Positions 818 to 13,701 of a stretch of DNA of 64,000 bases are shown piece after piece. The translations under genes were made by a program, and so were the position numbers. Numbering within the stretch: position 1 is the stretch's first letter; every line of letters begins with the position of its first letter. Where the stretch lies: NCBI RefSeq assembly GCF_050920415.1, contig NZ_CP169309.1; one strand, 5' to 3'. This DNA comes from Escherichia coli (lineage in GTDB: Bacteria > Pseudomonadota > Gammaproteobacteria > Enterobacterales > Enterobacteriaceae). Below the pieces are notes generated by a model. The model was not told the DNA's origin. It worked only from the letters and a program-made list of their open reading frames with translations, and made no database searches.

Positions 818-2529
818 TGAGCGAAAAACATCCAGGGCCTTTAGTGGTCGAAGGTAAACTGACAGACGCCGAGCGCATGAAGCTTGAGAGCAACTACCTG
901 CGCGGGACCATTGCGGAAGATTTAAACGACGGTCTGACCGGCGGCTTTAAGGGCGACAACTTCCTGCTGATCCGTTTCCACGGTATGTATCAGCAGGATG
1001 ACCGCGATATCCGCGCCGAACGTGCTGAACAGAAGCTGGAACCGCGTCATGCGATGCTGCTGCGCTGCCGTCTGCCGGGTGGGGTGATCACCACTAAACA
1101 GTGGCAGGCAATTGATAAATTCGCCGGTGAAAACACCATTTATGGCAGCATTCGCCTGACCAACCGCCAGACGTTCCAGTTCCACGGCATTCTGAAAAAG
1201 AACGTCAAACCGGTGCACCAGATGCTGCACTCGGTCGGTCTTGATGCGCTGGCGACCGCCAACGACATGAACCGTAATGTACTCTGCACCTCGAACCCAT
1301 TTGAATCTCAGTTGCACGCGGAAGCGTATGAGTGGGCGAAGAAAATCTCTGAACATCTGCTGCCGCGTACCCGCGCCTACGCGGAGATCTGGCTCGATCA
1401 GGAAAAAGTCGCCACCACTGACGAAGAACCGATCCTCGGTCAGACCTATCTGCCGCGTAAATTCAAAACCACGGTAGTGATCCCGCCGCAGAACGATATC
1501 GATCTGCACGCCAACGACATGAACTTTGTGGCGATCGCGGAAAACGGCAAGCTGGTGGGCTTCAACCTGCTGGTGGGTGGTGGGCTTTCTATCGAACACG
1601 GCAACAAGAAAACCTACGCCCGCACGGCGAGCGAGTTTGGCTATCTGCCACTGGAGCATACGCTGGCGGTGGCGGAAGCGGTCATTACCACTCAGCGTGA
1701 CTGGGGTAATCGTACTGACCGTAAAAACGCCAAAACCAAATACACGCTGGAGCGCGTGGGGGTCGAGACGTTTAAAGCAGAAGTGGAACGTCGCGCGGGG
1801 ATCAAGTTCGAACCGATCCGTCCGTATGAATTTACCGGTCGCGGCGATCGTATCGGCTGGGTAAAAGGGATCGACGACAAATGGCACTTGACGCTGTTTA
1901 TCGAAAATGGCCGAATTCTTGATTATCCGGGACGTCCGCTGAAAACCGGCCTGTTGGAGATCGCAAAGATCCACAAAGGTGATTTCCGCATTACGGCGAA
2001 CCAGAATCTGATCATCGCCGGTGTACCGGAAAGCGAGAAAGCGAAGATTGAGAAGATCGCCAAAGAGAGCGGATTGATGAATGCCGTCACGCCGCAGCGC
2101 GAAAACTCAATGGCCTGCGTGTCATTCCCGACTTGCCCGTTGGCGATGGCGGAAGCGGAGCGTTTCCTGCCGTCGTTTATCGATAACATCGATAATTTAA
2201 TGGCGAAACATGGTGTCAGCGATGAGCATATCGTGATGCGTGTAACAGGCTGCCCGAACGGTTGTGGTCGCGCGATGCTGGCGGAAGTGGGCCTGGTGGG
2301 TAAAGCGCCTGGGCGCTACAACCTGCATCTTGGTGGCAACCGCATTGGGACACGTATCCCACGGATGCATAAAGAAAACATCACCGAGCCGGAAATCCTG
2401 GCGACGCTTGATGAACTGATAGGGCGCTGGGCGAAAGAACGTGAAGCGGGTGAAGGCTTCGGCGACTTTACGGTGCGTGCGGGCATCATTCGCCCGGTGC
2501 TCGATCCGGCGCGTGATTTGTGGGATTAA
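817..2529 (+). CDS. cysI: Sulfite reductase hemoprotein beta subunit (siroheme/4Fe-4S)
   Basis: 570-aa ORF, length and sequence typical of CysI, with a C-terminal Cys cluster (CPNGCGR); translationally coupled to cysJ. Confidence 0.95.
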
Positions 2530-2560
2530 TATGAATTGCCGCTTCAACTCGGTTTTGTTG

Positions 2561-2636
2561 GCCTGATAAGCGAAGCGCCATCAGGCACTGTGACACCTTT
2601 TGCCGGATGTGGCATAAACGTCTTATCCGGCCTACT
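2561..2636. repeat. REP/BIME-like palindromic units in the cysI-cysH intergenic region
   Basis: Two GC-rich imperfect palindromes (gcctgataagcgaagcgccatcaggc and gccggatgtggcataaacgtcttatccggc) of the REP type. Confidence 0.6.
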
Positions 2637-2665
2637 TAACCCGCAAGGCAAACAGTGAGGAATCT

Positions 2666-3400
2666 ATGTCCAAACTCGATCTAAATGCGCTGAACGAACT
2701 GTCGAAGGTAGATCGCATTCTGGCGCTGGCGGAAACTAACGCCGAGCTTGAAAAACTGGATGCTGAAGGCCGCGTCGCCTGGGCGCTGGATAATCTGCCC
2801 GGTGAATATGTGCTTTCTTCCAGCTTCGGCATTCAGGCGGCGGTGAGCCTGCATCTGGTGAATCAGGTTCGCCCGGATATTCCGGTGATCCTCACCGATA
2901 CGGGTTATCTGTTCCCTGAAACCTACCGCTTTATTGACGAGTTAACGGACAAACTCAAGCTCAACCTGAAAGTGTACCGCGCTACCGAAAGCGCTGCCTG
3001 GCAGGAAGCACGCTACGGCAAACTGTGGGAACAGGGCGTTGAAGGCATTGAAAAGTACAACGATATCAACAAAGTCGAACCGATGAACCGGGCGCTGAAA
3101 GAACTAAACGCGCAAACGTGGTTTGCTGGCCTGCGCCGTGAACAATCCGGCAGCCGCGCTAATTTACCGGTGCTGGCAATTCAGCGTGGTGTATTCAAAG
3201 TGCTGCCGATTATCGACTGGGATAACCGAACTATTTATCAGTACCTGCAAAAACATGGCCTGAAATATCATCCATTATGGGACGAAGGATATTTATCGGT
3301 CGGTGATACCCATACAACCCGTAAATGGGAACCTGGTATGGCGGAAGAAGAAACGCGTTTCTTTGGCTTAAAAAGGGAATGTGGGCTGCACGAAGGGTAA
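2666..3400 (+). CDS. cysH: Phosphoadenosine phosphosulfate (PAPS) reductase
   Basis: 244-aa ORF with PAPS reductase family sequence and the C-terminal ECGLH motif; sits downstream of cysJI. Confidence 0.95.
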
Positions 3401-3458: not shown

Positions 3459-3757
3459 GAGCCGCATTCCGGCATTTAAACGTGAATATAGCAGGGGAAA
3501 TCAACAGTTATAGAATGGCGTCGGGTGCTTGAGGCTGTCTGGCGTTAAGCATTCGCGAGGTTCCAGATGGACAAAAGCCCCAGGCGATATATCTATCAAC
3601 CTGAGGCTCGCGTTCGAACGTAGCAATTCGGATGTTAGTCTCTTCTTTGCAGGGAGGCAAGACATGTGTATATCACTGTAATTCGATATTTATGAGCAGC
3701 ATCGAAAAATAGTCCACTGATATCATCGATAATACTAAAAAAACAGGGAGGCTATTA

Positions 3758-6424
3758 ATGGAACCTTTTAAATATATATGTCATTACTGGGGGAAATCCT
3801 CAAAAAGCCTGACGAAAGGAAATGATATTCATCTGTTGATTTATCATTGCCTGGATGTTGCAGCTGTTGCAGATTGCTGGTGGGATCAATCAGTCGTACT
3901 ACAAAATGCTTTTTGCCGAAATGAAATGCTATCAAAACAGAAGGTGAAAGCCTGGCTGTTATTTTTCATTGCCCTTCATGATATCGGAAAGTTTGATATA
4001 CGATTCCAATATAAATCAGCAGAAAGTTGGCTGAAATTAAATCCTGCAACGTCATCACTTAATGGTCCATCAACACAAATGTGCCGTAAATTTAATCATG
4101 GTGCAGCCGGTCTGTATTGGTTTAACCAGGATTCACTTTCAGAGCAATCTCCCGGGGATTTTTTCAGTTTTTTTGATGCCGCTCCTCATCCTTATGAGTC
4201 CTGGTTTCCTTGGGTAGAGGCCGTTACAGGACATCATGGTTTTATATTACATTCCCAGGATCAAGATAAGTCGCGTTGGGAAATGCCAGCTTCTCTGGCA
4301 TCTTATGCTGCGCAAGATAAACAGGCTCGTGAGGAGTGGATATCTGTACTCGAAGCATTATTTTTAACACCAGCCGGGTTATCTATAAACGATATACCAC
4401 CTGATTGTTCATCATTGTTAGCAGGTTTTTGCTCGCTTGCTGACTGGTTAGGTTCCTGGACCACAACGGATACCTTTCTATTCAAAGAAGATGCACCTTC
4501 AGGCATACAAGCGCTAAGAAAATATTTTCAGGATAGACAACAGGATGCGTGTCGGGTACTGGAGTTGAGTGGCCTTGTATCAAATAAGCGTAGTTATGAC
4601 GGCGTACATGCCTTACTGGACAATGGCTATCAACCAAGACAATTACAGGTGTTGGTTGATGCTCTTCCTACAGCTCCCGGGCTGACGGTGATTGAGGCAC
4701 CTACGGGATCAGGTAAAACCGAAACAGCGCTGGCCTATGCCTGGAAACTTATTGACCAACAACTTGCGGATAGTGTTATTTTTGCCCTCCCTACACAAGC
4801 TACTGCAAATGCAATGCTCAGCAGAATGGAAGCGAACGCGAGCCGTTTATTTACCTCCCCAAATCTTATTCTTGCTCATGGTAATTCACGTTTTAACCAC
4901 CTTTTTCAATCAATAAAATCACGCGCATTTACTGAGCAGGGGCAAGAAGAAGCGTGGGTTCAGTGTTGCCAATGGTTGTCACAAAGCAATAAGAAAGTGT
5001 TTCTTGGGCAAATAGGAGTTTGCACGATTGATCAGGTGTTGATATCGGTATTGCCAGTTAAACACCGCTTTATCCGTGGTTTGGGAATTGGTCGAAGTGT
5101 TTTAATTGTTGATGAAGTTCATGCTTACGACACGTATATGAACGGCTTGCTGGAGGCTGTGCTCAAGGCTCAGGCTGATGTGGGGGGGAGTGTTATTCTT
5201 CTTTCCGCAACTCTACCAATGAAACAAAAACAGAAACTTCTGGATACTTATGGTCTGCATACAGATCCAGAGGAAAATAACTCCGCATATCCACTCATTA
5301 ACTGGCGAGGTGTGAATGGTGCGCAACGTTTTGATCTGTTAGCTCATCCAGAACAACTCCCGCCCCGCTTTTCAATTCAGCTAGAACCTATTTATTTAGC
5401 TGACATGTTACCTGACCTTACGATGTTAGAGCGAATGATCGCAGCGGCAAACGCGGGTGCACAAGTCTGTCTTATTTGCAATTTGGTTGACGTTGCACAA
5501 GTATGCTACCAACGGCTAAAGGAGCTAAATAACACGCAAGTAGATATAGATTTGTTTCATGCACGCTTTACGCTGAACGATCGTCGAGAAAAAGAGAATC
5601 GTGTTATTAGCGATTTCGGAAAAAATGGGGATCGAAATGTTGGACGAATACTTGTCGCCACGCAAGTCGTGGAACAATCGCTCGACGTTGATTTTGATTG
5701 GTTAATTACCCAGCATTGTCCCGCAGATTTGCTTTTCCAACGATTGGGCCGTTTACATCGTCATCATCGCAAATATCGTCCCGCTGGTTTTGAGATTCCT
5801 GTTGCCACCATTTTGCTGCCTGATGGCGAGGGTTACGGACGACATGAGCATATTTATAGCAACGTTAGAGTCATGTGGCGGACGCAGCAACATATTGAGG
5901 AACTTAATGGAGCATCCTTATTTTTCCCTGATGCTTACCGGCAATGGCTGGATAGCATTTACGATGATGCGGAAATGGATGAGCCAGAATGGGTCGGCAA
6001 TGGCATGGATAAATTTGAAAGCGCCGAGTGTGAAAAAAGGTTCAAGGCTCGTAAGGTTCTGCAGTGGGCTGAAGAATATAGCTTGCAGGATAACGATGAA
6101 ACCATTCTTGCGGTAACGAGGGATGGGGAAATGAGCCTGCCATTATTGCCTTATGTACAAACGTCTTCAGGTAAACAACTGCTCGATGGCCAGGTCTACG
6201 AGGACCTAAGTCATGAACAGCAGTATGAGGTGTTAGCACTTAATCGCGTCAATGTACCCTTCACTTGGAAACGTAGTTTTTCTGAAGTAGTAGATGAAGA
6301 TGGGTTACTTTGGCTGGAAGGGAAACAGAATCAGGATGGATGGATCTGGCAGGGTAATAATATTGTTATTACCTACACTCGGGATGAAGGGATGACCAGA
6401 GTCATCCCTGCAAATCCCAAATAA
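3758..6424 (+). CDS. cas3: Cas3 HD nuclease / DEAD-box helicase (type I-E)
   Basis: 888-aa ORF with an N-terminal HD domain (HDIGK), a Walker A motif (APTGSGKT) and a DEVH box; immediately precedes casABCDE. Confidence 0.95.
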   Translation: MEPFKYICHYWGKSSKSLTKGNDIHLLIYHCLDVAAVADCWWDQSVVLQNAFCRNEMLSKQKVKAWLLFFIALHDIGKFDIRFQYKSAESWLKLNPATSSLNGPSTQMCRKFNHGAAGLYWFNQDSLSEQSPGDFFSFFDAAPHPYESWFPWVEAVTGHHGFILHSQDQDKSRWEMPASLASYAAQDKQAREEWISVLEALFLTPAGLSINDIPPDCSSLLAGFCSLADWLGSWTTTDTFLFKEDAPSGIQALRKYFQDRQQDACRVLELSGLVSNKRSYDGVHALLDNGYQPRQLQVLVDALPTAPGLTVIEAPTGSGKTETALAYAWKLIDQQLADSVIFALPTQATANAMLSRMEANASRLFTSPNLILAHGNSRFNHLFQSIKSRAFTEQGQEEAWVQCCQWLSQSNKKVFLGQIGVCTIDQVLISVLPVKHRFIRGLGIGRSVLIVDEVHAYDTYMNGLLEAVLKAQADVGGSVILLSATLPMKQKQKLLDTYGLHTDPEENNSAYPLINWRGVNGAQRFDLLAHPEQLPPRFSIQLEPIYLADMLPDLTMLERMIAAANAGAQVCLICNLVDVAQVCYQRLKELNNTQVDIDLFHARFTLNDRREKENRVISDFGKNGDRNVGRILVATQVVEQSLDVDFDWLITQHCPADLLFQRLGRLHRHHRKYRPAGFEIPVATILLPDGEGYGRHEHIYSNVRVMWRTQQHIEELNGASLFFPDAYRQWLDSIYDDAEMDEPEWVGNGMDKFESAECEKRFKARKVLQWAEEYSLQDNDETILAVTRDGEMSLPLLPYVQTSSGKQLLDGQVYEDLSHEQQYEVLALNRVNVPFTWKRSFSEVVDEDGLLWLEGKQNQDGWIWQGNNIVITYTRDEGMTRVIPANPK

Positions 6425-6838
6425 CTTCGGGAATGATTGGTATCAATGACGATAACAAGACCAATAACGGTTTATCCCTACTTAAGTAGGGAAGGTGCAC
6501 AATGTACATCTTCTTTTAATTTCCCGGTATGAGATTTTATATTCACAGTATGAATATTTTATGTAATAAAATTTATGGTAATTATTATAACTAAAAATTT
6601 CTTTGATAATAAAACGAATAACTTGCAGATTTGAAATGCATGCATTATTGTCTTTAAACAATTCAACACATCTTAATATATGCATAGGTTAATTGTATTA
6701 AACCAATGAATATATTTTTGCAGTGAATGTGATTATTGAATTAATTACGCCGTATTTTTTCTTTGTTTTTACCGATAACGGAAGTGTGCCGACGTATAGA
6801 AATGCAGGAGAAATGTCGGAGCATATGAAGGAGAACAA
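6425..6838 (+). promoter_or_regulatory. AT-rich cas3-casA intergenic region carrying the Cascade operon promoter (H-NS/LeuO-regulated in K-12)
   Basis: 414-bp strongly AT-rich non-coding stretch directly upstream of casA. The promoter assignment comes from published K-12 work, not from exact motif positions read here. Confidence 0.45.
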
Positions 6839-8347
6839 ATGAATTTGCTTATTGATAACTGGATCCCTGTACGCCCGCGAAACGGGGGGAAAGTCCAAAT
6901 CCTAAATCTGCAATCGCTATACTGCAGTAGAGATCAGTGGCGGTTAAGTTTGCCCCGTGACGATATGGAACTGGCCGCTTTAGCACTGCTGGTTTGCATT
7001 GCACAAATTATCGCCCCGGCAAAAGATGACGTTGAATTTCGACATCGCATAATGAATCCGCTCACTGAAGATGAGTTTCAACGACTCATCGCGCCGTGGA
7101 TAGATATGTTCTACCTTAATCACGCAGAACATCCCTTTATGCAGACCAAAGGTGTCAAAGCAAATGATGTGACTCCAATGGAAAAACTATTGGCAGGGGT
7201 AAGCGGCGCGACGAATTGTGCATTTGTCAATCAACCGGGGCAGGGTGAAGCATTATGTGGTGGATGCACTGCGATTGCGTTATTCAACCAGGCGAATCAG
7301 GCACCTGGTTTTGGTGGTGGCTTTAAAAGCGGTTTACGTGGAGGAACACCTATAACCACCTTCGTATGTGGGATCGATCTTCGCTCGACGGTGTTACTCA
7401 ATGTCCTCACAATACCTCGTCTTCAAAAACAATTTCCCAATGAATCAAATACGGAAAACCAACCTACCTGGATTAAGCCTGTCAAGCCCAATGAATCTGT
7501 GCCAGCTTCGTCAATTGGGTTTGTCCGTGGCTTATTCTGGCAACCAGCGCATATTGAATTATGCGATCCCATTGGGATTGGTAAATGTTCTTGCTGTGGA
7601 CAGGAAAGCAATTTGCGTTATACAGGTTTTCTTAAGGAAAAATTTACCTTTACAGTTAATGGGCTATGGCCCCATCCGCATTCCCCTTGTCTGGTAACAG
7701 TCAAGAAAGGGGAGGTTGAGGAAAAATTTCTTGCTTTCACCACCTCCGCACCATCATGGACGCAAATCAGCCGAGTTGTGGTAGATAAGATTATTCAAAA
7801 TGAAAATGGAAATCGCGTGGCGGCGGTTGTGAATCAATTCAGAAATATTGCGCCGCAAAGTCCTCTTGAATTGATTATGGGGGGATATCGTAATAATCAA
7901 GCATCTATTCTTGAACGACGTCATGATGTGCTGATGTTTAATCAGGGGTGGCAACAATACGGCAATGTTATAAACGAAATAGTGACTGTTGGTTTGGGGT
8001 ATAAAACAGCCTTACGCAAGGCGTTATATACTTTTGTGGAAGGTATTAAAAATAAAGACTTTAAAGGGGCTGGAGTCTCTGTTCATGAGACTGCAGAAAG
8101 GCATTTCTATCGACAGAGTGAATTATTAATTCCCGATGTATTGGCGAATGTTAATTTTTCCCAGGCTGATGAGGTAATAGCTGATTTACGAGACAAACTT
8201 CATCAATTGTGTGAAATGCTATTTAATCAATCTGTAGCTCCCTATGCACATCATCCTAAATTAATAAGCACATTAGCACTCGCCCGCGCCACGCTATACA
8301 AACATTTACGGGAGTTAAAACCGCAAGGAGGGCCATCAAATGGCTGA
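6839..8347 (+). CDS. casA: Cascade large subunit Cse1/CasA
   Basis: 502-aa ORF at the head of the Cascade operon; start MNLLIDNWIPVRPR matches Cse1. Confidence 0.95.
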   Translation: MNLLIDNWIPVRPRNGGKVQILNLQSLYCSRDQWRLSLPRDDMELAALALLVCIAQIIAPAKDDVEFRHRIMNPLTEDEFQRLIAPWIDMFYLNHAEHPFMQTKGVKANDVTPMEKLLAGVSGATNCAFVNQPGQGEALCGGCTAIALFNQANQAPGFGGGFKSGLRGGTPITTFVCGIDLRSTVLLNVLTIPRLQKQFPNESNTENQPTWIKPVKPNESVPASSIGFVRGLFWQPAHIELCDPIGIGKCSCCGQESNLRYTGFLKEKFTFTVNGLWPHPHSPCLVTVKKGEVEEKFLAFTTSAPSWTQISRVVVDKIIQNENGNRVAAVVNQFRNIAPQSPLELIMGGYRNNQASILERRHDVLMFNQGWQQYGNVINEIVTVGLGYKTALRKALYTFVEGIKNKDFKGAGVSVHETAERHFYRQSELLIPDVLANVNFSQADEVIADLRDKLHQLCEMLFNQSVAPYAHHPKLISTLALARATLYKHLRELKPQGGPSNG

Positions 8348-12408: not shown

Positions 12409-12513
12409 AAACAAAGAATTAGCTGATCTTTAATAATAAGGAAATGTTACATTAAGGTTGGTGGGTTGTTTTTATGGGAAAAAATGCTTTAAGAACAAAT
12501 GTATACTTTGAGA
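12409..12513 (+). promoter_or_regulatory. CRISPR leader (AT-rich; array promoter and integration-proximal region)
   Basis: About 105-bp AT-rich sequence between the cas2 stop and the first repeat. Confidence 0.7.
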
Positions 12514-13701
12514 GAGTTCCCCGCGCCAGCGGGGATAAACCGCTCGCGTATACTCTCTGCCAACGTCTCCAGATGAGTTCCCCGCGCCAGCGGGGATAAA
12601 CCGGCGGGATTATCGGCACTGACGTCGGCGCTGTGGAGTTCCCCGCGCCAGCGGGGATAAACCGGGTCGCTTCCATATATGAACCTTGAGGATTAGGAGT
12701 TCCCCGCGCCAGCGGGGATAAACCGGTTCCATGCACTGCCCGCAGTGTCAGCCGTACGAGTTCCCCGCGCCAGCGGGGATAAACCGGTAAATCATACGTT
12801 GGCATCAGTATTTTTCTCGAGTTCCCCGCGCCAGCGGGGATAAACCGACTCCGCGCCATTTGAGAATTCTCAGTTCTGCGAGTTCCCCGCGCCAGCGGGG
12901 ATAAACCGCTACTGCTGTCAGACGGCAGGGCAAAACAGCGGAGTTCCCCGCGCCAGCGGGGATAAACCGGACGTGCGGATGCTGTTTCTGGTTTTACCTC
13001 CGAGTTCCCCGCGCCAGCGGGGATAAACCGTTTTTTCTCAGCGTCTGGCAGAGCTAATCGCCGAGTTCCCCGCGCCAGCGGGGATAAACCGGTGTCAAAT
13101 TTCATGTAATTGATGATCCAGCTGAGTTCCCCGCGCCAGCGGGGATAAACCGGGTATTTCTCGTTAACACGGTCGTATCAAAACGAGTTCCCCGCGCCAG
13201 CGGGGATAAACCGAGGGGTTGCAACCATAGCCCTTAGTTGATTGCGAGTTCCCCGCGCCAGCGGGGATAAACCGCCAGTGGATTTTAATAAACTCTCCAG
13301 CGAGCAGAGTTCCCCGCGCCAGCGGGGATAAACCGTTCGCCACGTCAGGCGTGATTTCCTGCACTGAGAGTTCCCCGCGCCAGCGGGGATAAACAGGGCG
13401 CGTCTGCGCCCGCTAGGACTCGTGTCAAGAGTTCCCCGCGCCAGCGGGGATAAACCGGGAGTTCAGACATAGGTGGAATGATGGACTACGAGTTCCCCGC
13501 GTTAGCGGGGATAAACCGCCCGGTAGCCAGGTTTGCAACGCCTGAACCGAGAGTTCCCCGCGCCAGCAGGGATAAATCGGCAACGACGGTGAGATTTCAC
13601 GCCTGACGCTGGTGTTCCCCGCATCAGCGGGGATAAACCGGGCGCACTGGATGCGATGATGGATATCACTTAGAATTCCCCGCCCCTGCGGTAGAACTCC
13701 C
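12514..13701 (+). CRISPR. Type I-E CRISPR array: 19 regular 29-bp repeats plus one degenerate terminal repeat, 19 spacers of 32 bp
   Basis: Repeat GAGTTCCCCGCGCCAGCGGGGATAAACCG recurs with an exact 61-bp period from 12514 to 13612. Repeats at 13368, 13490, 13551 and 13612 carry point variants, and a heavily degenerate terminal repeat sits at 13673-13701. Confidence 0.97.

Follow-up and report, generated by a model that had tools for sequence, protein, structure and literature searches.

The AT-rich region between cas3 and casA of a K-12-type Escherichia coli contains known regulator sites and a putative mini-CRISPR directed at the cas promoter

The stretch of DNA that was analysed (64 kb, here called the window) is part of an E. 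coli chromosome with a type I-E cas cassette of the K-12 type. Between the stop codon of cas3 (6422-6424) and the ATG of casA (6839) lies a gap of 414 bp, 6425-6838. The same 414-bp fragment is named in PMC5797941, and the primers given there correspond to the exact flanks of the gap (6425-6444 and 6819-6838). The following features were assigned in and around it.

6425-6838, no strand: cas3-casA intergenic region ("IGLB" or Pcas region of K-12-type E. coli), 414 bp, 30% G+C
6408-6436, minus strand: PsiR2, the more degraded repeat-like unit TCATTCCCGAAGTTATTTGGGATTTGCAG, overlapping the cas3 stop codon
6437-6467, minus strand: PsiS, a 31-nt pseudo-spacer TTATTGGTCTTGTTATCGTCATTGATACCAA between PsiR1 and PsiR2
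6468-6496, minus strand: PsiR1, a CRISPR repeat-like unit ACCTTCCCTACTTAAGTAGGGATAAACCG with a 7-bp hairpin and an intact 8-nt crRNA 5' handle ATAAACCG
6482-6685, minus strand: ORF1, 67 aa, ATG start, not a gene (start and frame lost in strains, no coding signature)
6539-6557, no strand: high-affinity core (IIa) of LeuO site II, the perfect 7-5-7 palindrome ATATTCACAGTATGAATAT, an exact match that is identical in K-12
6581-6609, minus strand: sigma-70-like candidate 2 for anti-Pcas, TTATCA (6609 to 6604), 17-nt spacer, AATAAT (6586 to 6581)
6591-6624, minus strand: predicted PsiS target with PAM AAG (6624 to 6622) and protospacer TTATTCGTTTTATTATCAAAG... (6621 to 6591)
6606-6635, minus strand: sigma-70-like candidate 1 for anti-Pcas, TTCAAA (6635 to 6630), 18-nt spacer, TATTAT (6611 to 6606)
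6623-6657, plus strand: inferred Pcas, -35 TTGCAG (6623-6628), 17-nt spacer, -10 TATTGT (6646-6651), transcription start at about 6656-6657
6695-6730, no strand: LeuO/LrhA site I region, GTATTAAACCAATGAATAT (6695-6713) overlapping ATATTTTTGCAGTGAATGT (6712-6730)
6698-6898, minus strand: ORF2, 66 aa, TTG start, not a gene (starts antisense within casA, no Pfam match)
6733-6744, no strand: proposed SlyA site TTATTGAATTAA, centred 100 bp before the casA ATG
6829-6841, plus strand: casA SD AGGAG (6829-6833), read from the sequence, and start codon (6839-6841), from the ORF and the annotation

The base composition of the gap was analysed against the whole window. An earlier reading made from the sequence only had described the spacer as extremely AT-rich, and this was borne out by a G+C content of 0.2995 versus 0.520 in the whole window (z = -4.3 relative to all stretches of 414 bp). 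The 414-bp minimum of the 64 kb was found at 6445-6858 (0.287; runner-up 0.36) and the 200-bp minimum at 6549-6748 (0.205), and the two lowest 100-bp windows, 6528-6627 (0.17) and 6645-6744 (0.22), are both in the gap. The exception that had been made for the CRISPR leader is slightly inaccurate: its 105 bp (12409-12513) have a G+C content of 0.276, equal to that of the gap minus the cas3-proximal 73 bp (0.276), whereas the gap core 6510-6760 is at 0.227. The multiple A/T tracts that had been noticed are present; the gap has 19 AnTm tracts of 4 bases or more, which does not exceed what the composition gives (shuffle mean 21.4). DNA curvature had been proposed as a further check; with the 10-11 bp phasing of A-tracts as a proxy, the gap gave no significant signal (P = 0.42). 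An Rfam search of the gap returned no match at E <= 1. The K-12-type cas cassette as a whole has a G+C content of 0.42-0.48, which is also under the window value.

In K-12, the gap contains the cas operon promoter, Pcas or Pcas8e. LeuO activates this promoter, CRP represses it, and H-NS silences it, a role that StpA takes over in cells lacking H-NS (PMC10011333; PMC3497052). This K-12 IGLB with Pcas/Pcas8e and anti-Pcas, described by Pul et al. 2010 and Westra et al. 2010 according to the citing passages of PMC10011333, PMC6698644 and PMC12968389, is the same locus with the same 414 bp; the allele in the window differs from it by six substitutions. According to PMC6698644, two LeuO sites were determined by DNase I footprinting, one upstream and one downstream of the transcription start, and PMC12968389 reports that LrhA binds to the same two sites, with LBS I at about +40 to +55. 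The divergent promoter anti-Pcas, repressed by H-NS as well, is attributed to Pul et al. 2010 in PMC10011333, a 2023 review that still terms its role unknown.

The LeuO elements were found in the window. The core of site II is shared with the leuO promoter, where ATATTGATTTGGTGAATAT provided a cross-check of the assignment, and a scan of the 64 kb with the LeuO palindrome pattern gave 7 matches, 3 of them inside the gap. At site I, GTATTAAACCAATGAATAT and ATATTTTTGCAGTGAATGT deviate from the pattern by 2 and 3 mismatches, respectively. The gap contains both the 19-bp 7-5-7 core of site II and a second LeuO/LrhA site, as K-12 does. The position of Pcas was deduced from the bases mutated in the LrhA study, which PMC12968389 gives as -116, -114, -102 and -101 for LeuO site II and as +40, +42, +54 and +55 for site I. 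When this numbering was laid on the palindromes 6539-6557 and 6695-6713, +1 came to lie at 6656-6657, the numbering being that of a secondary source and internally off by one base. The corresponding hexamers are the same in K-12 and match the consensus at 3/6 (-35) and 4/6 (-10) positions, 7/12 altogether, and because they are so weak Pcas did not appear in a consensus promoter scan. The scan yielded both anti-Pcas candidates. Promoter prediction had been suggested for this region; the number of sigma-70-like sites that the scan gave was no higher than in shuffled sequences.

No entry for Pcas or anti-Pcas at this locus was present in the two genome-wide tables of transcription start sites that were searched. 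A scan for the CRP consensus (TGTGA-N6-TCACA, up to 3 mismatches) gave nothing specific in the gap, and a scan for the high-affinity H-NS motif (TCGATAAATT, up to 2 mismatches) gave neither a specific match nor an enrichment; the sequence, with a core G+C of 0.23, is compatible with H-NS binding. The SlyA site is listed "100 bp upstream of casA" in PMC5797941. The expectation that the Cascade promoter with its silencing and antisilencing sites is located here was supported, since the K-12 orthologue has been characterised experimentally and the motifs described for it are unchanged in the window. The sequence-only reading was incomplete in that it included neither anti-Pcas nor the repeat-like mini-array at the cas3 end.

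The allele was then compared with other strains. The segment 6300-6950 is 100% identical to strain MFDS1022581. The gap is collinear with that of K-12 MG1655, 414 bp long in both without indels, and identical at 408 of 414 bases (98.6%). The six substitutions are at 6440, 6456, 6574, 6597, 6605 and 6683. ORF1 owes its ATG to one of them, and three affect the mini-array (PsiS positions 12 and 28) or the target (position 17); none alters the LeuO IIa core, the inferred -35 and -10 hexamers, the core of site I, the SlyA site or the SD. With 1.45%, the gap has diverged less from K-12 than cas3 (4.69%) and casA (2.85%; binomial P = 0.002). Among 8 strains, pi was 0.016 in the gap versus 0.061 and 0.039 at the third codon positions of cas3 and casA, and 6701-6838 was invariant. 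The neighbouring cysI and cysH alleles are unusually divergent from K-12, by 5-6%.

Two explanations that assign the gap a different role can be weighed with these data. It might be horizontally acquired AT-rich filler that is coated non-specifically by H-NS and has no dedicated sites. The G+C content of the cassette below that of the window, the number and phasing of A-tracts as predicted by composition and the lack of enrichment of H-NS consensus matches would fit this, but footprinted LeuO sites and mutational data for this exact sequence are given in PMC6698644 and PMC12968389, and the gap is more conserved than the third codon positions of its neighbours, which makes the filler explanation very improbable. 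According to the other explanation, ORF1 (67 aa) or ORF2 (66 aa) on the minus strand is a genuine small-protein gene transcribed from anti-Pcas. Shuffled versions of the gap contained two ORFs of 60 aa or more in just 2.3% of cases, and a minus-strand promoter is known (PMC10011333). Yet both ORFs lie in one common stop-poor frame and represent a single event, not two independent ones, and a longest ORF of at least 67 aa occurred in 14.6% of the shuffles. In 7 of the 8 strains, K-12 among them, ORF1 has ATA in place of the ATG, and its frame is interrupted by a stop codon in strain H5; of the four substitutions between ORF1 and K-12, one abolishes the ATG and two of the other three alter an amino acid. 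ORF1 has no SD, its G+C content by codon position is flat (0.22/0.28/0.24), and its ATG is upstream of both candidate anti-Pcas promoters and their starts. The Pfam search of ORF1 and ORF2 gave nothing that reached the cutoff, and no feature is annotated in the ORF1 region in K-12 or any listed RefSeq genome. Without a conserved start and frame, a ribosome binding site or a coding signature, a small protein is scarcely credible here. The sequence-only reading had dismissed the ORFs as compositional artefacts; they are indeed not genes, ORF1 having its ATG in one of 8 strains and no SD and neither having a Pfam match, but the AT composition is a weak reason, since AT-rich DNA is rich in stop codons, not poor in them.

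At the cas3 end of the gap, a degenerate mini-CRISPR with two repeats was found on the minus strand, running from 6496 to 6408. Shmakov et al. 2023 (PMC10120712) have predicted such a mini-array in the I-E locus of E. coli. PsiR1 shares 19 of 29 bases with the array repeat GAGTTCCCCGCGCCAGCGGGGATAAACCG. Plain identity to the repeat was dropped as a criterion, as other places in the window reach 19/29 by chance. Of the 18 exact copies of the 11-mer GGGATAAACCG in the window, 17 belong to the array and one to PsiR1, with a chance expectation of 0.03. The handle of PsiR1 matches at 8 of 8 positions, and its predicted fold equals that of the repeat in dot-bracket notation, although two of the pairs differ from the repeat on both sides. 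PsiR2 shares 14 of 29 bases with the repeat (48%), and part of it is constrained by the coding of cas3; it keeps the repeat register and the hairpin, the CCC..GGG base of the stem and G21/A22, with three pairs changed on both sides. The predicted structures of the repeat, PsiR1 and PsiR2 are identical and consist of standard pairs throughout, 3 pairs showing compensatory change. When both strands (128 kb) were searched for 29-mers with 7/7 pairs and the CCC..GGG stem base, six were found outside the array. Three of the six are located here, namely PsiR1, its plus-strand mirror and PsiR2, and PsiR1 and PsiR2 are 60 nt apart on one strand. In the real array, the period is 61 nt. The 8 strains do not vary in PsiR1 or PsiR2, and PsiS is polymorphic among them at positions 12 and 28 only. 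A possible phage mimic of PsiS was searched for in INPHARED phages, without a match, and in IMG/VR, where all 67 matches to handle and seed were without the repeat hairpin, consistent with chance.

The predicted target of PsiS is located at the cas promoter. Pairing extends over positions 1-5, 7-8, 10-11 and 13-17 with mismatches at 6, 9 and 12, so that 14 of the first 17 positions match (6621 to 6605). It is the only site for PsiS with AAG and a full seed (positions 1-5 and 7-8) on either strand of the 64 kb, and such a site appeared in 46 of 20,000 dinucleotide shuffles of 6498-6838 (P = 0.0023). The pair of PsiS and target was also recovered as the direct repeat D3. The PAM overlaps or abuts the inferred -35 element of Pcas (6623-6628). 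All polymorphisms in PsiS and target are outside the seed; the match at target position 17 is lost in the K-12 haplotype, and position 9 is mismatched. In type I-E Cascade, positions 6 and 12 are flipped out. For I-F1 as well, these two positions do not contribute to pairing (Shmakov et al., PMC10120712). Shmakov et al. put the target immediately upstream of Pcas, over an H-NS site (PMC10120712), and its location in the window fits this placement.

The element was compared with two kinds of described mini-CRISPRs. The mini-arrays between cas3 and cas8 of types I-E and I-F1 (PMC10120712) likewise have two repeat-like units, the better-preserved one beside the seed, are transcribed opposite to cas3, occupy a long cas3-cas8 gap and have an AAG PAM target just upstream of Pcas; all these features were re-derived here from the sequence. 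Only the Pseudomonas I-F1 example was validated by Shmakov et al.; the E. coli I-E case is a prediction, and the name anti-Pcas is not used (PMC10120712). The type I-E CreR of Salmonella enterica (bioRxiv 10.1101/2023.03.10.532045), compared by its published description, is a degenerate mini-CRISPR upstream of casA as well, with the 5' handle in PsiR1, a 3' hairpin in PsiR2 and a partial match to an AAG-flanked site at PcasA. The E. coli element has this architecture, with two repeat-like units around PsiS, the handle in the upstream unit, a predicted Cas6e hairpin in both and a PAM-flanked, seed-matching site at the cas promoter. In Salmonella, PsiS matches its site, about 140 bp before casA, over 15 consecutive nt, whereas the match in E. 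coli is broken by mismatches, with pairing at 14 of the first 17 positions, and its PAM-proximal end is 218 bp upstream of casA. Salmonella CreR works with E. coli Cascade, in tests with which it lowered its own PcasA about 8.6-fold, and its effect is relieved by excess crRNA or by AcrIE8 (bioRxiv 10.1101/2023.03.10.532045).

From these comparisons, the gap very probably serves to regulate the type I-E cas operon of K-12-type E. coli, and does so in two layers. The first layer consists of protein regulators and is established for K-12. Here the weak sigma-70 promoter Pcas would drive casABCDE-cas1-cas2 via a leader of about 180 nt, and H-NS, or StpA in its absence, would silence Pcas and anti-Pcas on the AT-rich DNA. 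LeuO and LrhA would relieve silencing at the two sites that bracket the promoter (core 6539-6557; about 6695-6730), CRP would repress, and SlyA would bind as well. The second layer is the mini-CRISPR, which has been predicted in the literature and which we infer for this allele from its sequence features; it probably lets Cascade repress its own promoter. PsiR1-PsiS-PsiR2 (6496 to 6408) would be transcribed downstream of the anti-Pcas candidates and Cas6e would cut the transcript at the two retained hairpins, leaving a crRNA-like RNA of about 60 nt. Cascade loaded with this RNA would then pair with 6621 to 6605, where the PAM is present, the seed fits completely and about 14 of the 17 leading positions match. 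CasA would sit on the PAM that overlaps the inferred -35 of Pcas, and the complex would extend over the anti-Pcas candidates too. Pairing as short as this should permit binding and not Cas3-mediated cleavage. The expected outcome is an H-NS-independent self-repression by Cascade that would loosen when real crRNAs or anti-CRISPR proteins compete for the Cas proteins.

Mini-array and target were predicted by Shmakov et al. 2023, whereas the link to anti-Pcas and the geometry of the two promoters are what we infer here. We tentatively propose that anti-Pcas drives the mini-CRISPR and that RNA-guided Cascade blocks the Pcas -35 and the anti-Pcas core together, forming a crRNA-sensing loop in which Cascade and its own guide would be repressed jointly after relief from H-NS; the idea is a possible one, with the balance slightly against it. 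As both promoters are silenced by H-NS under laboratory conditions, any such feedback loop would matter only after derepression.

The same elements can be read in other ways. The repeat-like units might be inert CRISPR debris from ectopic integration or a decayed array, the similarity of PsiS and target could be left over from a local duplication, and the gap would then work via protein regulators only. PsiR2 is only 48% identical to the repeat, an identity of 19/29 is found by chance elsewhere in the window, the PsiS-target pair shows up as an ordinary direct repeat (D3), and stand-alone repeats arise sporadically, many of those in type III loci looking non-functional (Shmakov et al., PMC10120712). 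Decay free of selection, however, would not have left the two hairpins fully paired after five double changes, nor would the intact 8/8 handle be explained. A canonical AAG PAM, a perfect seed and mismatches at positions 6 and 12 are not expected from debris, nor is a target right beside the inferred -35 of the Cascade operon itself, and in the 8 strains PsiR1 and PsiR2 show no variation and the seed is free of polymorphisms. We regard debris as rather unlikely. The palindrome 6475-6492 could also be a terminator or 3' stabiliser of the cas3 mRNA on the plus strand and possibly stop the anti-Pcas transcript too. It forms a perfect 7-bp stem with a 4-nt loop, begins 51 nt past the cas3 stop, has a predicted energy of -10.3 kcal/mol (z = -2.1 to -3.5) and folds on both strands. 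But no U-tract follows the hairpin on either strand, AAGGUGCAC being the sequence after it, and a scan of 6300-6950 for intrinsic terminators found none. The ATAAACCG handle, the second in-register hairpin 60 nt away and the PAM-flanked target would be left unexplained, and we consider this role improbable. Terminator and mini-array functions of the palindrome are not mutually exclusive.

The region sets the native CRISPR immunity of E. coli on or off and is a textbook example of how a defence system is silenced by H-NS and freed from this silencing by LeuO. Its recognition adds nothing new, and the mini-array was already predicted in the literature. The practical value is that the allele in the window keeps every described site. 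If the mini-CRISPR works, native Cascade would limit its own expression, which would respond to crRNA load and anti-CRISPRs, and anti-Pcas would gain a function. The one testable lead is anti-Pcas as the driver of the mini-array.

The 414-bp spacer is specific to the K-12-type cassette and was found in 1133 of 5426 complete E. coli genomes (about 21%). The 1132 matches over 6400-6660 were all at least about 98% identical, a diversity too low for assessing covariation between PsiS and target. A search of genome contigs with CasA gave only three distant Methylococcaceae loci (32-36% identity) and no close gap orthologue outside E. coli. The O157:H7-type I-E cassette occupies the same chromosomal site, with cysH on one side and the CRISPR array on the other, and its genes are in the same order, but its cas3-casA gap has 97 bp with 48% G+C and no repeat-like unit, and an AT-rich stretch is located upstream of cas3. 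Among the loci sampled, the repeat-like element was absent from this 97-bp gap and from two Methylococcaceae loci (cas3-casA overlap; 61 bp), and it occurred only in the long gaps, that of the K-12 type (414 bp) and that of a Methylobacter MAG (604 bp).

According to open reading frames and annotation, the gene order in the window is cysI, cysH, cas3, casA, casB-E, cas1 and cas2, followed by the CRISPR array.

3758-6424: cas3 (ORF and annotation)
6839-8347: casA (ORF and annotation)
from 12514, plus strand: CRISPR array (ORFs, annotation and repeat survey)

The cas3-casA gap (6425-6838) was exactly 414 bp long, as the sequence-only reading had stated, and its extreme AT-richness was confirmed, its G+C content being 0.2995 where the window as a whole has 0.520 (z = -4.3). 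The lowest-G+C windows of 100, 200 and 414 bp in the 64 kb all lay within the gap region. The CRISPR leader had been named as the one exception, which was slightly off. The 105-bp leader has a G+C content of 0.276, the same as the gap minus its first 73 bp, and since the gap core (6510-6760) goes down to 0.227, the gap is no less extreme than the leader. The multiple A/T tracts were present, but in the number expected from the composition, and no helical phasing of the tracts was found in the gap.

A counterpart of the region 6300-6950 with an identity of about 95% or better was present in 1133 of the 5426 complete E. coli genomes, never more than once per chromosome, and the E. coli strain MFDS1022581 had it at 100% identity. 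The window runs antiparallel to the K-12 MG1655 numbering (window x = 2890977 - x in NC_000913.3). The two gaps are collinear and differ at six positions (6440, 6456, 6574, 6597, 6605 and 6683).

In K-12, Pcas3, Pcas8e and Pcrispr are independent promoters under H-NS silencing, with StpA acting at Pcas8e when H-NS is absent; CRP is a repressor and LeuO an activator (PMC10011333; PMC3497052). A divergent promoter on the opposite strand, anti-Pcas, is repressed by H-NS and is described in PMC10011333 as having no known role. LeuO protects two extended AT-rich sites, and site II contains a 19-bp palindrome (7-5-7) of high affinity, also present at the leuO promoter (PMC6698644). LrhA shares the LeuO sites, with mutated bases at -116, -114, -102 and -101 in LBS II and at +40, +42, +54 and +55 in LBS I (PMC12968389). 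Applying this numbering to the palindromes of the gap, we inferred the start of the Cascade promoter Pcas at 6656-6657. The two anti-Pcas candidates come from a promoter scan that gave no more sites than shuffled sequences.

6539-6557: perfect 7-5-7 palindrome ATATTCACAGTATGAATAT, the only perfect one, LeuO site II core
6695-6713 and 6712-6730: related palindrome copies, LeuO/LrhA site I region
6623-6628 and 6646-6651, plus strand: putative weak Pcas, -35 TTGCAG, 17-nt spacer and -10 TATTGT, fitting the proposed +1
6733-6744: proposed SlyA site
6829-6833: casA Shine-Dalgarno (SD) motif, read from the sequence
6635->6630 and 6611->6606, minus strand: anti-Pcas candidate 1, -35 and -10
6609->6604 and 6586->6581, minus strand: anti-Pcas candidate 2, -35 and -10

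Three of the seven matches to the palindrome pattern in the 64 kb lay inside the gap. The K-12 leuO promoter carries ATATTGATTTGGTGAATAT, which confirms the assignment of the LeuO core at 6539-6557. All six differences from K-12 fell outside the LeuO IIa core, the putative Pcas hexamers, the site I core, the SlyA site and the SD motif. The proposal that the gap holds the Cascade promoter with its silencing and antisilencing sites was thus borne out by the published K-12 work at 98.6% identity, and the protein-regulated promoter established there very probably operates here as well. This reading of the gap was real, rightly interpreted and already known; its account was incomplete, as the divergent promoter and a mini-CRISPR were overlooked.

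The gap diverged from K-12 by 1.45%, compared with 4.69% for cas3, 2.85% for casA, 5.0% for cysH and 6.4% for cysI (binomial P = 0.002 against the pooled cas3 and casA rate). Among eight K-12-type strains, the gap had a pi of 0.016, and third codon positions gave 0.061 in cas3 and 0.039 in casA; the stretches 6701-6838 and 6457-6544 were without variable sites. The low divergence fits a dense functional constraint, with a recombination history as a possible alternative.

The degenerate mini-CRISPR came to light at the palindrome at 6475-6492, examined in view of two 2023 papers on crRNA-like regulators. It consists of two repeat-like units and a pseudo-spacer.

6496->6468, minus strand: PsiR1 ACCTTCCCTACTTAAGTAGGGATAAACCG, compared with the array repeat GAGTTCCCCGCGCCAGCGGGGATAAACCG
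between the units, minus strand: pseudo-spacer PsiS TTATTGGTCTTGTTATCGTCATTGATACCAA, 31 nt
6436->6408, minus strand: PsiR2 TCATTCCCGAAGTTATTTGGGATTTGCAG, 60 nt beyond PsiR1 in the same register, overlapping the cas3 stop codon

The 11-mer GGGATAAACCG covers the base of the hairpin together with the crRNA 5' handle of 8 nt; apart from its 17 copies in the array, it was found only at PsiR1 (one copy, 0.03 expected). The array repeat, PsiR1 and PsiR2 share one fold, ....(((((((....)))))))......., in which all pairs are standard and three pairs are changed on both sides. Outside the array, this hairpin geometry with a CCC..GGG stem base was shared by six 29-mers in the window; both PsiR1 and PsiR2 belong to them, and PsiR1 alone had the full handle. 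Both units were without variation in the eight strains.

In the 64 kb, PsiS matched an AAG-flanked site over the full seed only once, at 6621 on the minus strand (PAM 6624->6622). Shuffling the remaining gap 20,000 times produced such a site in 46 cases. Pairing extends over positions 1-5, 7-8, 10-11 and 13-17, with mismatches at 6, 9 and 12. The guide positions 6 and 12 are flipped out in type I-E Cascade; the mismatch at position 9 is a true one. In each of two haplotypes 14 of the first 17 positions were paired, and the seed was free of polymorphism in the eight strains. The target PAM overlaps the putative Pcas -35 and the protospacer spans the anti-Pcas candidates.

The E. coli mini-array is not new; it was predicted by Shmakov et al. 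(PMC10120712), who found repeat-like sequences and long (>200 bp) cas3-cas8 gaps in excess in I-E loci. Their mini-arrays have two units, the better-preserved one adjoining the seed, and are transcribed in the direction opposite to that of cas3. In "the E. coli I-E locus" they describe an AAG-PAM target overlapping the H-NS site directly upstream of Pcas and a region, covering the LeuO and CRP sites, in which the mini-array probably starts; their validation covered an I-F1 case only (PMC10120712). CreR, a regulatory RNA of the Salmonella I-E system, was validated with E. coli Cascade, and its features include relief through AcrIE8 and through an excess of crRNA (bioRxiv 10.1101/2023.03.10.532045). 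Our analysis re-derived the prediction, supplied statistics and data on variation among strains, and linked the mini-array to anti-Pcas, a term absent from the available text of Shmakov et al. and returned from one review only in a full-text literature search. From the sequence features, which support it well, we give roughly even chances to a second layer, in which Cascade represses itself through the predicted mini-array, probably driven by anti-Pcas. Anti-Pcas would transcribe the mini-array, and the product would guide Cascade to the Pcas region.

Two minus-strand ORFs in this region, ORF1 (6482-6685, 67 aa) and ORF2 (6698-6898, 66 aa), had been regarded as almost certainly compositional artefacts. 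They are indeed artefacts. The ATG of ORF1 is made by a C at 6683 in the window strain only (1 of 8 strains; the remaining seven have ATA at this codon), and in strain H5 a stop codon interrupts the ORF1 frame. No SD motif was found for ORF1, and its codon-position G+C was flat. Neither ORF had a Pfam match over the cutoff, and none of the genomes listed had a gene annotated at their position. Their cause is not AT-richness as such but one stop-poor frame: both share a minus-strand frame with only four stops. Of the shuffles, 14.6% had a longest ORF of at least 67 aa, and 2.3% had two ORFs of 60 aa or more.

In the O157-type E. coli cassette, the cas3-casA gap is 97 bp long, has 48% G+C and lacks a repeat-like unit (L003 10309-10405 in O157:H7 ECP17-1298, own coordinates), and the AT-rich stretch lies upstream of cas3 instead (L003 7400-7700, G+C 0.27-0.30). 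This layout implies a different promoter arrangement for the same system in what would be about four fifths of E. coli genomes. A CasA scan of representative genomes gave three Methylococcaceae loci only. In two of them, with cas3 and casA overlapping or 61 bp apart, no repeat-like unit was found. In the third, from a Methylobacter sp. MAG, the gap measures 604 bp, and two repeat-like hairpins spaced by about 60 nt, TTCATTCCCCATAACCGTGGGGATGAACCG and TGTTCCCCACACCCGTGGGGATTTG, adjoin cas3 on the opposite (minus) strand (L007 2953-3041). A possible AAG-flanked partial target was seen by eye near 3117 of this locus. Small as this sample is, it fits the published pattern of a long gap that exists to house an RNA gene and its regulatory sites.

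In strain 1506 (L008 4001-4791) an IS1 was inserted 38 bp into the gap, replacing the remaining gap and casA, and in RM9872-C1 (L009 3615-5499) casA was truncated by an IS3-family element. The gap was matched at two separate places in 9-23 further genomes. Judging from these loci, inactivation by IS elements recurs in this region.

Elsewhere in the window, the cysH-cas3 intergenic region (3523-3678, plus strand) strongly matched the Rfam sok antitoxin RNA RF01794 with 97 bits (gathering score 59). At the equivalent position, sokX is annotated in K-12, and a complete Hok/Gef gene of 50 aa is present in the O157-type strain. As the window lacks an intact hok ORF, this looks like a decayed hok/sok module. 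The cysI and cysH alleles (978-3400) diverge from K-12 by 6.4% and 5.0%. An identity of 99% or more to the cysH 3' half was seen in a single one of the 5426 complete E. coli genomes, compared with 425 genomes for the cas3-casA gap. The cysI-cysH spacer (2530-2665) has a 62-bp indel relative to K-12. Together, these features suggest a mosaic or imported segment adjoining the cas locus.

The casA leader contains a mini-ORF of 9 codons (6813-6842, plus strand), MSEHMKENK, with a TGA stop that shares bases with the casA ATG (ATGA), and a duplicated SD-like motif (ATGCAGGAGAA at 6802-6812 and ATGAAGGAGAA at 6825-6835). Translation of the mini-ORF is doubtful because just 2 nt separate the first SD from its start codon. 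The array (12514-13640, plus strand) has a 61-nt period with at least 17 repeats. Steps of 122 nt, one after 13335 and one after 13518, indicate repeats without the exact 3' 11-mer, and two variant repeats, GAGTTCCCCGCGTTAGC... and GTGTTCCCCGCATCAGC..., occur. A part of the window that ranks second in AT-richness (3669-4082, G+C 0.36) includes ATATTCATCTGTTGATTTA at 3825-3843 on the plus strand, 67 bp into cas3, which matches the LeuO palindrome pattern with 3 mismatches and may relate to a separate cas3 promoter region.
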